From: a plasmid
Assembly (NCBI RefSeq): GCF_057098645.1
Contig: NZ_JBXSPU010000002.1
Strand: one strand, 5' to 3'
DNA length: 64,000 nucleotides
Shown one piece after another: positions 25,901-58,900 of this stretch. Position 1 is the stretch's first letter; every line of letters begins with the position of its first letter. The position numbers are program-made.

Positions 25901-28900
25901 TTGATCGCCGTTTGCTGGCGCTGTGTAAAGCAGGTCAAATTAATTATACAACCGGAAAAGGGAGGCTTAAATGAGATGGTGCCATTTTGCCACAAACTTG
26001 AGGAAAAACTCATGACAAGCAATCGCTGCCGTGAAATTAAAACGCCACCAGAGCATATTATTGCGGATTACATTCTTCGCTTTATGAAGAACAATAAAGA
26101 GGCAAAACTCTACGAAGCCATGAGCCGCCTTGAAAGTAAAATCAAACTCTTTGTAGCTGACGGTCATGATGAACTACACATCCGGGCATTGTTAAATCAG
26201 GCCGCACATAGCCATACCAAAGAATCATTGAAACAGGCCTGTGAACGGATTTGTAATTAAATTTTTTGTGTTAAATTCTGTCTGTAGTTGCCTCGCCACA
26301 GGCATCCTGACCGACACTCTGCCACCGAAAGAGGGACGCAATTCTAGTGAAATTTATCCTTATGTTTTTCATTTTAGCCATTCTGATCTGGGGTTTTACA
26401 GGTCTGACTTTTAAAGATGCCATTCTGTTTACATCCGTCGGCCTGAGCATTTCGGTTGTGGCTTTGTCTGCGCTGCTTGTGGTAGCTCTGACATTTGTCA
26501 TGGCTGCAATGTATGCGGCTCATGAACTGGGATCGCTTGGTAAAATGATTATCTCTCAGGTCGTTCTGGTTGGATTCTGGAACCTGATTTTTTCTGTTAT
26601 CCCGGACGGAAAATTAATTTCGTTTTTTGGCGTTAATGTCTGGCAATCTGGTTCATATCTAGTTTACTTCATGACGGTGTTGGTAGCTGTTTTCGCAGCG
26701 TATATCGCGCTCCAGAAGCAGCGATAGTTCTTTTCCTGATGTAGTGCATAAGCCTTCCCTTTCGGAAGGCTTTTTTCTGCCTTTAGCGCGGAGTGTTTTT
26801 AAACTGAGTCCGGCTGCACTCCATTTAAATTTAATTCAGTCCTATCTAATAAATCGCTTATTTTTTTCATTCTGGGTTATTAGCCAGACGAGACAGTTTG
26901 TTATATTTGAATTACATCAACCGAGGGCGAGAAAAATGCAGATTAATAAAGTTATGTCTTTACTTGATATTCTTACCAGCTGGCTCGAAGACAATATTAA
27001 TATGGAGTCTGACCTGTTTTTCGATAACGATGTAGACAATACCACCTCAGAGTCCCTGTATCCCGCTGTGGAAAAAGCTAACGCTGTATTGAGCAAACTG
27101 GCGTCACTGTCGTCAGAGACGATTCAGGCGACGCGTCAGCGTTTGCAGGACGCGGTAGAAGGCAAAGGGGAGGTTTCAACTGCTGACGTCAAAGAGTTGC
27201 TACTGGCCACCCGATATCTGATGCTGACTACGGATGGAGAATAAGTTTATGACCACATTAACATTCGAAATTGCTGGGGTAAAAAAGCTCCTCGAAGAAC
27301 TCCGCTCGGCGGAACGGTTCAATGCAACCATTGAACAGCTTTTTGAACCGTCAAATTACCCCGGCGGTACTCCTCTCAACGAAGAGGGCAAAACAGAAGT
27401 GGAAATGAACCAGACGGGGGGAATTTTCTGGCCATCATCCAAACACATTGACCCGGCCCGCCTGACTCCACAGATCCTTCTGGTAAAAGATCATGGCGTC
27501 TATCTGATTACCAATGCATCTCTGGATGGAACCCCTGTTTCCCGTGATACGGTTGTCTATGCCCGTGGGATGAATCCGTCTGTTGATGATGAATGGTATG
27601 ACGAGGCAGAGGAGGCATTGGGCGGCGATGATAGTTCGGTCTCTATCCCGGTGGCGTGGTTTGAACTCGCTCTTAAAAAGAAATTTAATGCTTTTAGTAT
27701 CAAAGTATCCCCCACAAAAATCACTCTGGTGAATGGATAACCACGGCACAGGCTGGCTATCTCGCTTAAACAGTCCGTCCCTGATCTATTAACAGGGCGG
27801 ACCTTATTTAACACAGGACACTAAAAATGGTTATTGACGCTGAGAATTCGGAAATGCATCAAGTACGTGATTTTATCGCTGCAAACTGGAGCCTGTTTAC
27901 TTCGCACATCCGCGAGAAAAGCATGACTGATGAACAGGCCGAAGAGGAAGCTCAACGCATTTTTGTTGTTGTCGGGGGGGGGAAGAGTAAAGGCATTTGC
28001 CTCGCTCAGGGATTCAGCCAGGTGCTGGATATGCACGTTATTTTCAGGTCTGTCCGCTAATCTGTCAGCCGGACAGCCCTCGTTATAAAAGGAACATTAT
28101 GGCAGACACAAAACGTCCCAGCTCCCCGCTTACACAGGCCCAAATCTATGTGCTACGTCGCCTGGCATCCGGAACGACATGCAAGTTTTTTTGACTTTCC
28201 CGCGCGGAACCCAATTCACTGATTTGTGCCCTGCATAAGAATAACTTGCCGCCGGACATATCGTCGGTGGAAAAGTTACTTTTCTATATTTCGATTGTGT
28301 TCTACAGCATCGTTCTTTTCCTGAGTTCAGGAAGTGACAGGCCATAGGCACCTCGAAAATACTCTCGTCATTGCCTCCCTGATGTGTCTTTTTTCTTGTC
28401 AAAATAGGCCCGTTACCGAAAAAAAATTGGCATCTGATATGGTGTAATGCTGGTGTCATTTCACCCCAGAAGGATAGCTCCTGATGAAATTGTTCTACAG
28501 CAAACCTGTTCGCTTTATCGTCATTATCTGCGTATTTCTCCTCGGCGTTGATAACCTGAGCGATATGTTCGTCGATATCTCCCGACCAGTATTCTACGGC
28601 GGTCTCGCTGCACTCCTGGCCGCTGCCGTCGTTATTGCCCGCGTTGATTACAACAAGAACGCGGAAAAAAAGGCCAGCCAGGTCCAGTAACCTTTATTCA
28701 GCCACCTTACGGTGGCTTCTTTTTTATTAACAAGGACTGACTCATGCATAACCTTGAAATCTCTACCATAGCCATTTTCAGTGCCCAGTATAAAAATATC
28801 GAAGAGGCCGAGAACGCCGGGGCCTTATATTCCGTCGATATCGAATATCCGATGACTCTGAATGACCTGTCGCTGCTGTGTGAATCTGTAGCAAAAGCCG

Positions 28901-55900: not shown

Positions 55901-58900
55901 TCAGGGCATTCATCAAGGTAATGTAAATAAATCCTATAGCGAAGAGAACCAGAATGTGCTCTCGTCATTGGAGAAGAATACCCCTGTTGTGACGAATGAA
56001 ACTGTGGGAAGAGTTCAGGGGGCTGGGGTGGACGTTCAGCACGCCAACCAAACTTTCGACCAGTTACAGGCTGGTTCGGGCGGTAAGCATGCGACTTCGG
56101 GCATGGGTACTATCAGCGACAAACTGAATAATATGTACGGAGATAACCAGATACGCGGTATATCAGGCAACCTCCCGAATTATTTTGGCAGGATTGCAAA
56201 TGATCCTACCAAAAAGCCGGATGACAAACGTGCGGAACTGGCCGCACAAGCTGTGTTTACCTATGGCGCCAGTACAATGGCAACCGGCGCTGAGAAAGAA
56301 CAACTGAAAGCGGATACTCAAAATATCCTCTCCGAACTGAGTCACTATAACGTTCGCTGGGGGATGAACGATCTCCAGAATATCCATGAAGGTTTCAACA
56401 TGCATAACAAGGCTTCAGGTTCTCTTGACTCAGTTGTGAGGGCGAATCTTGGGGAAGGTGGTTCTGGCGGCGGGCTCGTTGGGCAACGAACCCAAACCAC
56501 GACGGATCTCCTTGTTGGTAATAAAATTGAGTCCAATACAGAACGTGGTGTTATTGGTAGTACGCTTTTATCGGGGCAGGAGAGTGTTGCCAGAGGACTT
56601 GACGTTATCGGAGCTAAACCTGTAAACGACATGCTCTCAGGTATGGGTATCCTGACCACCCCTTCATCTTTGGCAAACGATGCTTCGAATCCACAAAATA
56701 TGCCGAGCTCGCTATTGGGCAAGGTTGGAAATCACCTGCAAATGTCAGATGGTGTTAGCGAGGTGACCAGCAGGTATAAGGATATGGGGGGGGATGGGAT
56801 CAAGGCGTATGAGACTGCATCACAAAACTCAGAACGTGCGATTCGTCAGCAACTGACCGATGATCCACGTTTTGGGCCGGATAAAGCAGATGCATTCGTG
56901 AGCTTTATGAAGTCAAACCTGAATAATACAAATGAACCATATCAGTCGAGAATTGAGAAAGCTAAAAGCTGGCTGAATGAAAATAAGAAGTAAAAGTAAG
57001 TAGTAGCTGATAAAGGCCGTACTCTCTTTTGAGTACGGTCTTTTTTTGCTTGCATCACCCTGATTCAAATTTCCTCACCAAATACAGGTCACCCGGCACA
57101 CTAAGAAAATGTGCATTTCTTCTGTTCAAAATGAAAATTGAGAGAAAAGTAACTTTTCTGAATCGACTGATGCTTTAGTGCCTAGGCCATAGCGCATCAG
57201 AGGCTTTGGTTGTATGGAGGGTGTGGAAAAGTTACTTTTTCAATAAAAGCGGGTCATCAGCACATTATATCTGGCTATCAGGTCCGTTAGATCCTTTTCA
57301 TTAACCCCGGTGTAATAATCTGTACGAAACAGGTGCGGGTACTCTGGAGGAAACAGGGTCGCATCGTCATCAAGGCAGATAAAGGCTTTTACTTTGTGTC
57401 TGGTGACGAAGTCCTCACATTCAGCTGCACGGACTCCTATACTTCCTGAGGGGAGATACAGGGATGGGGTTGCTCCAATTACCCTGTCTCTGTATGGCGA
57501 GCGGAAAAGTGACTTTAGGTAAGTGATACTGCCGCACTCTCTCCATGAGCTTGATATAACGATGAACATTGAAGGACTCGCGTCAAGTAACCTCTCAATC
57601 AAATGCATCCTCTCGAACGATTCATTCTGACATTTGTGGACTACACCATCAAAATCCAGGAAAAGAACAACATGGATTGATGGCAGAGGACCCCATAATC
57701 CAGCGGTTATTTCTTCATGAGACAATATTCCATCCACGTCTTTATTTTTGGGCAGCTGCGGTGAACTGCATAAATTGAACAGGAATTTATAAATTGACTG
57801 GAGCATCGTTAACCTTTTTCTCAGGACGTTTTCATTCTCTAAGAGCCGCATTGTTTATGGCTACGAAACAACTAATAAAAAATTGGAGAGTAGGGTCGTA
57901 TTTTATTCAGGAAGATTTTTTACAATATGCCCGTTGTACTGGGGCTTAGGTTGCGTCCACTGATATAATTCGTCCATTCCATTTCGGCGCTGAATCCGGC
58001 GATTGTATTTGATCATGAAGTTGAAGATATACGTCGCCCGGACCTTAGGGGTTTTGCTGTTGTAATCGGCAATCCCTTCAAATACGTTACCCTTCCGGTC
58101 AACAATCTTCCGGTAAAGCCACCAGGTGCCCACCCAGAAACTGGCACAGGCGTCATAGGCCAGCACCCGCCACGTAACAGACGGAAAATGGTCGCGTATT
58201 TCCGGCAGGTTGGACGAATTGATCTGCATAGGCCCAATATCATAAGTGCCATTTTTATTACGGCTGAACGTCCCGACTTTTCCGCCCTCATTATCAAAAA
58301 GCGTAAAGACCAACTCCGCATCAATCCCGAAAAAACGGGAGGCATCGGTAATGCACTGCGTGTAGATCTCAACAGGAACGGGAATAGGTTTCACATCGTC
58401 TACTGGTGGTATAAACACGAGATAATCTCCGCTGGAATTACGTTCTGGATATTCTCCCATATCGTCGTCAAAATTTTTTTTGCTATAGGGGGGAATTTTT
58501 CCCCTTAAGCGAATTAGGCAGATTTTTTCGCATGATAGTATTAACACTCCATTAAAGGAGCTGAAATGAATAAGACTATCAAGGCATCATTATTTTTACT
58601 GGCATCCTGTACGGCCTTGAGTATGAATGCCCAGACAGCGAACACTGACGTGCTTCCCGATGCTGCACTGAAGAAATTAAGAGAAGTGGGCTTGTCTATC
58701 GAGCATATTGAACCATCGCCGGTAAAAGATATTTATACCGTCATTTCAAGAGAGGGCGTGAGCTACGTCAGCAAAGATGGCGATTACATTTTCACCGGGA
58801 GCTTGTTTCATGTGAACGGGAAAGATGTGGAGAACACAACTGAGCAGGCTATTCTGAAAGGTGTCAGGGAGTTCGCCACTAAAACAAAATCCATCGAATA

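Follow-up and report, generated by a model that had tools for sequence, protein, structure and literature searches.

Do long runs of guanine on an IncHI1 plasmid act as switches for the genes that carry them, or do they change length freely where selection allows it? The question was raised by a 64,000-nucleotide (nt) stretch of plasmid contig NZ_JBXSPU010000002.1 (assembly GCF_057098645.1), referred to here as the window. A preliminary description of the window had placed five long G tracts inside coding sequences and proposed that slipped-strand changes in their length could make the genes phase-variable. All five tracts were recovered at the positions and lengths given there:

27974..27982, plus strand: hypervariable poly-G tract (tract 1), G9 in the window; its length modulo 3 sets which of three C-termini is encoded
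32301..32307, minus strand: hypervariable tract (tract 2), G7 as read on the plus strand; on the minus strand, a poly-C run that precedes the ATG of a gene remnant by 31 nt
31733..31739, plus strand: invariant G7, the 5' arm of a hairpin in the 3' region of the hok mRNA, starting 9 nt past the hok stop codon
55010..55016, plus strand: invariant G7 in trhG, GCG GGG GGC, encoding Ala-Gly-Gly (residues 669-671 of TrhG)
56786..56793, plus strand: invariant G8 in trhG, ATG GGG GGG GAT, encoding Met-Gly-Gly-Asp (residues 1261-1264 of TrhG)

Three of them (27974, 55010 and 56786) do lie within annotated genes, while the tract at 31733 is non-coding and the one at 32301 is intergenic in most annotations.

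Two classes of G tracts

Tract lengths were surveyed with 81-nt queries, for which a single indel shows as a changed matched span, and by direct reading of fetched loci. The tracts fell into two classes. Those at 27974 and 32301, uninterrupted runs in an open reading frame (ORF) or upstream of a start codon, were polymorphic among related plasmids and differed in length between sequences with identical flanks, while those at 55010, 56786 and 31733 showed no genuine length change in the plasmids examined. The signature of slipped-strand mutability proposed for the whole set was therefore retained for the first two sites, and not for the tracts in trhG and beside hok. The variation is probably best explained by slippage-driven, near-neutral drift in length where selection allows it, rather than by a regulated switch.

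The window has the backbone of an R27-type IncHI1 plasmid. Its nucleotide identity to R27 was 99.6-99.9% over about 30 kb, its TrhG protein was 100% identical to that of R27, its MobH relaxase differed by 3 residues, and records identical to the window were typed by MOB-suite as IncHI1A, MOBH and MPF_F. Plasmids of about 190 kb carrying tet(X4), such as pYPE10-190k-tetX4, were 100% identical over the queried stretches, and the 59-60 plasmid records of this tet(X4) clone that matched the window exactly at each variable site shared its tract lengths. IncHI1 plasmids are vehicles of multidrug resistance in typhoid and, more recently, of tet(X4) tigecycline resistance.

The frequency of G/C runs in the window was not above chance. 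Counted on both strands against order-0 and order-1 models, runs of at least 7 nt numbered 6 (about 5 expected), those of at least 8 nt numbered 2 (about 1.1-1.4 expected), and a single run reached at least 9 nt (about 0.25 expected).

Length polymorphism of tract 1

Across public assemblies, tract 1 took lengths of about G3 to G18. Its query matched 212 plasmid records with spans of 76 to 88 nt, implying G4 to G16, and 60 of the 212 had the G9 of the window. The following alleles were obtained by direct reading:

G4: pPNCS014881.1
G7: p805-MDR
G8: pSA20030575.1
G9: the window
G10: KV7
G12: pYLMB165
G14: p10-3184.1
G15: pYLPD7a
G16: pF18S001-1 and pLR-21-1_1
GGAGGGGG (interrupted): R27, pHCM1 and several E. 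coli and Citrobacter plasmids

Tract length differed between plasmids that were otherwise nearly or fully identical. G4, G12, G14 and G16 were carried by four plasmids with no single-nucleotide polymorphism (SNP) and no other indel over about 7 kb of flanks, and two further plasmids, 1-2 flank SNPs away from this group, carried G15 and G16; all six had G8 at tract 2 and G7/C6 in the hok hairpin. The window and KV7 differed by 2 SNPs, yet read G9/G7 and G10/G8, respectively, at tracts 1 and 2.

Long tracts were spread over a range of lengths in the plasmid collection, with G12 in 3 records, G13 in 6, G14 in 8, G15 in 24, G16 in 6 and G17 in 1 (mode G15). The G15 set includes pAKU_1 and pO111_1, which date from the Sanger era. 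Compared with this G12-G17 spread, the G9 clone was uniform over 60 records, and variability appears to rise with tract length. Homopolymer mutation rate climbs steeply with run length in bacterial genomes, and slipped-strand mispairing is the textbook mechanism.

The interrupted allele offers a natural control. The sequence GGAGGGGG was shared without change by R27, pHCM1 and plasmids of E. coli and Citrobacter from four continents, while the uninterrupted tract 2 of its carriers differed, with G10 in R27 and G12-G13 in S. Typhi pHCM1-type plasmids. Judged by these alleles, the interrupting base would stabilize tract 1 across diverse plasmids whose pure tract 2 varies.

Could the variation be mostly a sequencing or assembly artefact of a hard homopolymer whose true length is constant? 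Assembly trouble does concentrate at such tracts, as had been cautioned: about 220 public contigs terminate at tract 1, the record of pELE2-215 contains 39 homopolymer indels in 4 kb, and some deposited protein variants of the MT5866xx series, from another study, are frameshifted in the T5 run adjoining tract 1. Differences of +/-1 among G14, G15 and G16 in one sequencing project could likewise be consensus error. As a general cause, however, an artefact is very unlikely, because lengths differ by as much as 12-15 nt, independent laboratories and platforms have arrived at the same values (G9 in 60 records, G15 in 24), and the compared assemblies had zero other indels in about 7 kb. Moreover, G7 and G8 tracts elsewhere in the same plasmid collection were constant, and the Prokaryotic Genome Annotation Pipeline (PGAP) called three different protein lengths for the gene carrying tract 1, in line with tract length. 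Records such as pELE2-215 and the MT5866xx variants are best left out of tract-length surveys.

Two Shigella flexneri plasmids, CP100046.1 (165,691 bp) and NZ_CP026790.1 (165,702 bp), apparently carry G9 and G10, respectively, as read from matched spans, which suggests a recent within-lineage change at tract 1.

Tract 1 and its small conserved gene

Tract 1 is carried by the following gene:

27827..28060, plus strand: small gene with a native product of 53 amino acids (aa; MVID...VVVGGEE, then stop), read as 77 aa in the window

In the window, G9 forms codons 41-43 (GGG GGG GGG) of a 68-aa coding sequence (CDS) called by PGAP at 27854-28060, or of a 77-aa ORF if counted from the ATG at 27827. 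The native stop, TAA at 27988-27990, lies 5 nt past the tract and is out of frame with G9, and the ORF continues to 28060. Frame simulation showed that lengths with a remainder of 1 after division by 3 give the 53-aa protein with its native GGEE end (G(n)EE), a remainder of 0 (G9, as in the window) adds an unrelated tail of 25 aa, and a remainder of 2 (as in R27) adds a tail of 34 aa. The shift acts only past residue 49 of 53.

Homologues at 63-92% and at 43-50% identity were all 53-55 aa long and ended in (I/L)GGE(E/A/D), stopping directly after Gly-Gly-Glu. The native gene therefore encodes 53 aa, and the 77-aa ORF, ruled out as a gene in its own right, is a frameshift product. Its earlier designation as a potentially phase-variable gene does not stand in that form: the ORF results from reading through the end of the conserved 53-aa gene in a shifted frame, and slippage would alter a C-terminal tail rather than turn the ORF on or off. 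The alternative-frame tails were not conserved as ORFs in relatives and correspond to read-through of non-coding DNA. For database curation, the 68/77-aa and 86-aa proteins are frameshift products of the 53-aa gene.

The ratio of non-synonymous to synonymous substitution rates (dN/dS) of the 53-aa gene, 0.10-0.31, indicates purifying selection. Relatives encode the end of the gene as ATC GGG GGC/GGT GAA GAG TAA, with no slippery run. By this comparison, the run arose in the R27-type lineage, where a synonymous change from GGC/GGT to GGG fused G5 + N + G into G7.

An AlphaFold2 model of the 53-aa protein was a three-helix bundle with a confidence (pLDDT) of 85. Its sole family match was PHROG 15754, of unknown function, while Pfam, PADLOC and PDB fold searches gave no match, and an exhaustive HMMER search retrieved only 13 relatives. 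The gene stands in a block of small same-strand accessory genes beside hok (DUF957, DUF3085 and others) and is wholly missing from some IncHI1-like plasmids. Promoter and terminator scans around tract 1 gave nothing convincing.

Several minor observations concern the surroundings of this gene. The most distant syntenic homologue (63% identity), at 4001-4162 of a Logan contig of SRR7292942, has a different neighbourhood, with small ORFs around it and a VapE-like gene downstream. Taken with the match to PHROG 15754, its setting suggests that the family occurs also in phage-like elements. The window differs from R27 by an AG (2-nt) indel at 27810, 17 nt upstream of the ATG at 27827, and p805-MDR has the AG as R27 does. 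The indel coincides with the later start codon chosen by PGAP and may affect the ribosome-binding region of the gene. Downstream, a 31-aa ORF (MADTKRPSSPLTQAQIYVLRRLASGTTCKFF, then stop) at 28100-28195 (plus strand) is preceded by a good Shine-Dalgarno sequence and is what remains, after truncation, of a gene of about 97 aa that is intact in pGMI17-003_1 (about 1470-1765 of the fetched stretch). The frame of the small gene that yields the 34-aa tail (frame 2) stops 13 nt ahead of the ATG of this ORF.

Tract 2 upstream of a decayed gene

Tract 2 precedes two minus-strand features:

32159..32269, minus strand: DUF5417 remnant of 36 aa; alignment with the intact 110-aa gene of pGMI17-003_1 shows an internal deletion of about 220 bp
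31896..32096, minus strand: 66-aa hypothetical gene downstream of the remnant, a PGAP CDS in R27 and relatives (WP_000569545.1)

Tract 2 ranged from G7 to G13. It was G7 in the clone of the window (59 records), G8 in most other plasmids, G9 in one plasmid (inferred from its matched span), G10 in R27, and G12 (matched spans) or G13 (direct reading, CP029943) in S. Typhi pHCM1-type plasmids. On the minus strand, the ATG lying 31 nt past the poly-C has a good Shine-Dalgarno sequence. The same ATG opens an intact 110-aa DUF5417 gene in the distantly related pGMI17-003_1, where the tract 2 homologue is interrupted (ACATCACACCCCCG). That intact homologue matched PF17438 (DUF5417) with 30 bits against a cut-off of 23.9; in the window no full-length protein of this family was found, the 36-aa remnant being all that is left. 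In R27-type plasmids, the 36 codons left are coupled to the next ORF, whose start overlaps the stop of the remnant (ATGA).

The 66-aa gene is a possible target of any effect of tract 2 on expression. Its protein matched no Pfam family, and promoter and terminator scans around tract 2 found no recognizable promoter nearby. Coding of tract 2 on the plus strand (ORFs of 117 and 131 aa in the window, a 126-aa PGAP CDS in R27) was also considered and was rejected because the homologous DNA of relatives is the upstream region of the minus-strand DUF5417 gene, and the plus-strand frames shift with tract length.

Tracts of fixed length in trhG and beside hok

Two of the invariant tracts lie in one transfer gene:

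53004..56993, plus strand: trhG, mating-pair protein of 1329 aa with a TraG N-terminal domain

Its Pfam match to TraG_N (PF07916) had an E-value of 6e-30 and 105 bits against a cut-off of 36.1. Both trhG tracts are uninterrupted and within the range of about 7 nt or more typical of contingency loci, but they showed no genuine length change in the records listed. The G7 query matched 212 records, 192 of them identical, with no length change among the matches listed; 19 records at 95-99% identity look like substitutions (both of those listed span 81 nt). For G8, 267 records were matched, and all those listed span 81 nt except pELE2-215. A common SNP near G8 (64 records) is at 56761, 25 nt upstream of an intact G8, as read in p805-MDR only. 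In pNDM-CIT-type relatives, the two sites read GCATCGGGTACC (G7) and ATGGGAAGTGAT (G8), with no run at either.

The lone trhG length variant, that of pELE2-215, was traced to its error-ridden long-read assembly. This RefSeq record (NZ_MN868653.1) has fragmented gene calls in the 4 kb around trhG and is an uncorrected long-read assembly.

The third invariant tract belongs to the hok/sok locus:

31407..31568, plus strand: sok Rfam match (RF01794), overlapping the hok start
31566..31724, plus strand: intact hok toxin gene, 52 aa (PGAP annotation)

The sok match scored 89.1 bits against a gathering score of 59, so that an ORF for Hok and a sok RNA region are both present, as in a type I toxin-antitoxin system; an Rfam scan of 27000-33500 returned nothing beyond sok. 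Between the hok gene and a strong terminator lies a 14-bp hairpin (31725-31757; GAGGGGGG-GCGA-CCCCCCUC), in which the G run pairs with C6 at 31743-31748. Folding of a 116-nt stretch, which also includes the terminator hairpin, gave -56 kcal/mol (z = -4.8). G7/C6 was identical in all panel plasmids retaining the hairpin site, and the five IncHI1 matches listed for this tract all span 81 nt. The locus resembles hok/sok of the R1 parB family in its sok match, its intact 52-aa Hok and a structured 3' region (including the G7 at 31733) followed by a strong terminator, and the tract is here an element of a stem and no variable repeat.

A truncation of hok in the window (39 aa in PGAP, against 52) was ruled out: the sequence is intact, with one synonymous difference from R27 and an identical protein, and the shorter product is a mere start-codon call. 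In NZ_CP029729.1 and NZ_CP049968.1, which carry the interrupted allele of tract 1, the hok hairpin and tract 2 were not found in the fetched stretch, where IS1 copies stand in their place. An IS1-associated deletion is the likely explanation, and if so the block of hairpin and tract 2 would be dispensable.

Under a broader reading, all five tracts, including those in trhG, would be on/off phase-variable switches for conjugation and other genes. The location of G8 and G7, in frame inside an essential transfer gene where a change of +/-1 would abolish TrhG, is what such a reading would expect. However, no genuine trhG length variant occurs in the listed records from 212-267 matching plasmids, which cover six decades and eight genera, the TrhG protein is unchanged from R27, pNDM-CIT-type relatives do without the trhG tracts, and the hok-adjacent G7 is structural and non-coding. 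A switch at all five sites is thus extremely improbable and, at the population level, already largely refuted.

Near-neutral drift or contingency locus

According to the favoured explanation, the five tracts would be ordinary mononucleotide runs, all open to replication slippage and differing in the constraint on each. Both trhG tracts would be kept fixed by purifying selection, as a length change would frameshift an essential conjugation protein, and so would the hok-adjacent G7, which must pair with the C6 run in its hairpin. Tracts 1 and 2 would sit where a length change costs little and would have become runaway microsatellites. At tract 1, the synonymous change would have made G7 at the Gly-Gly-Glu-Glu-stop codons, and slippage would then have produced lengths from about G3 to G18, while tract 2 would lie in a leader or promoter upstream of an already decayed gene. 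With trhG frameshifts and mismatched hok hairpins removed by selection and changes tolerated elsewhere, tracts 1 and 2 would have been left to drift. Low constraint at the variable sites is indicated by the unconserved tails, by how common the extended allele is, and by the internal deletion of the DUF5417 gene.

Such behaviour is akin to that of neutral mononucleotide microsatellites, in which variability seems to grow with tract length, only weakly constrained sites vary, and runs in essential sequence are invariant. The pseudogene-like surroundings (the decayed DUF5417 gene and the truncated ORF downstream of tract 1) fit the same pattern. The differences are that the length range (about G3 to G18) and the survival of G13-G17 alleles exceed what is usual in Enterobacteriaceae, and that tract 1 lies in a gene otherwise under purifying selection.

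The alternative is that tract 1 is a plasmid-borne contingency locus, in which reversible slippage would alternate between the native form and inactive or altered extended forms as bet-hedging across hosts, while tract 2 might tune the 66-aa gene. Tract 1 has no interruption, can be as long as contingency-locus tracts typically are, and differs among nearly identical plasmids; the 53-aa gene is real and constrained, its C-terminal end is conserved, it belongs to the accessory block beside hok, and all three frames coexist in nature. On the other side, the tails are arbitrary read-through, the R27/pHCM1-type lineage is highly successful with its frame locked in an extended form, relatives retain the gene without the slippery run, and some IncHI1-like plasmids have no such gene. 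The G9 clone showed no switching among 60 records, the searches for a function of the 53-aa protein (Pfam, PADLOC, PDB fold, PHROG) found none that is known, and tract 2 adjoins a decayed gene with no recognizable promoter nearby. A contingency locus is therefore unlikely. More doubtful still is its specific form, a plasmid-owned locus in which tract 1 would toggle the three-helix protein of the PHROG 15754 family between the acidic GGEE end and extended isoforms, hedging between hosts or defence backgrounds.

The known simple-sequence (homopolymeric) contingency loci of Haemophilus, Neisseria, Campylobacter and Bordetella, whose phase variation relies on slipped-strand mispairing, share several features with the variable tracts: uninterrupted poly-G/C runs of about 7-18 nt, lengths that differ between otherwise identical genomes, a position that sets the reading frame (tract 1) or precedes a start codon (tract 2), and stabilization by an interrupting base. 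In contrast to them, the present tracts reside on a conjugative plasmid in a mismatch-repair-proficient enterobacterium; tract 1 is at the extreme 3' end of its gene and alters only the C-terminal tail, without truncation; and the homologous genes of relatives have no run.

Several points weigh against near-neutral drift. An extension of 25-34 aa is unlikely to be fully harmless, because purifying selection acts on the 53-aa gene (dN/dS 0.1-0.3) and homologues with as little as 43% identity keep the short GGE(E/A/D) end; such an extension would fit a functional on/off or altered-function switch equally well. The persistence of G13-G17 in a globally spread sublineage, unusual for enterobacteria, could indicate selection for mutability. 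In favour of drift, protein variants in a large collection (thousands of contigs) imply every tract 1 length from G3 to G18, with the three frames comparably abundant and the locked, extended allele (R27/pHCM1 type) among the commonest forms (at least 1000 contigs). These figures come from contigs that are not phylogenetically independent, they count some alternative start calls twice, a count of 1000 is a lower bound, and the G8 class mixes pure G8 with GGAGGGGG.

In practice, tract 1 breaks short-read assemblies and has left three "hypothetical protein" annotations for one gene; if it is read with care, its rapid evolution could make it a useful marker for following closely related plasmids. 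The set of tracts amounts to a natural experiment, in which comparable G runs on one replicon are frozen or run away according to local constraint, with the interrupting base as an internal control. Should the switch prove to have a function, tract 1 would give enteric bacteria an unusual phase-variable gene encoded on a plasmid, and a rare case of simple-sequence phase variation in Enterobacteriaceae owned by the plasmid rather than the host. In open-access papers on homopolymeric tracts or phase variation in IncHI1 and on homopolymer slippage in plasmids, no description of these tracts was found.

Other homopolymers and the relaxase gene

A traI frameshift, mentioned in the preliminary description in connection with assembly errors, is absent from the window, where the relaxase gene is intact:

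43609..46644, minus strand: MobH-family relaxase (TraI), 1011 aa, with a single terminal stop and 3 substitutions relative to R27

Over 30 kb of the window compared with R27, three of the four real indels were at homopolymers. One homopolymer difference is a T9 run at 37842-37850, T8 in R27, at the 3' end of a minus-strand nuclease-related gene. Runs of at least 7 nt showed a mild strand asymmetry in the window (5 of G against 1 of C, and 20 of T against 10 of A). The sole C run of this length, at 33378-33384, lies within a gene for a 401-aa ParB-helix-turn-helix (HTH) 'DNA-binding protein' (32579-33784) and was constant in the plasmid panel; R27 reads TCCCCCC there, a substitution rather than an indel.

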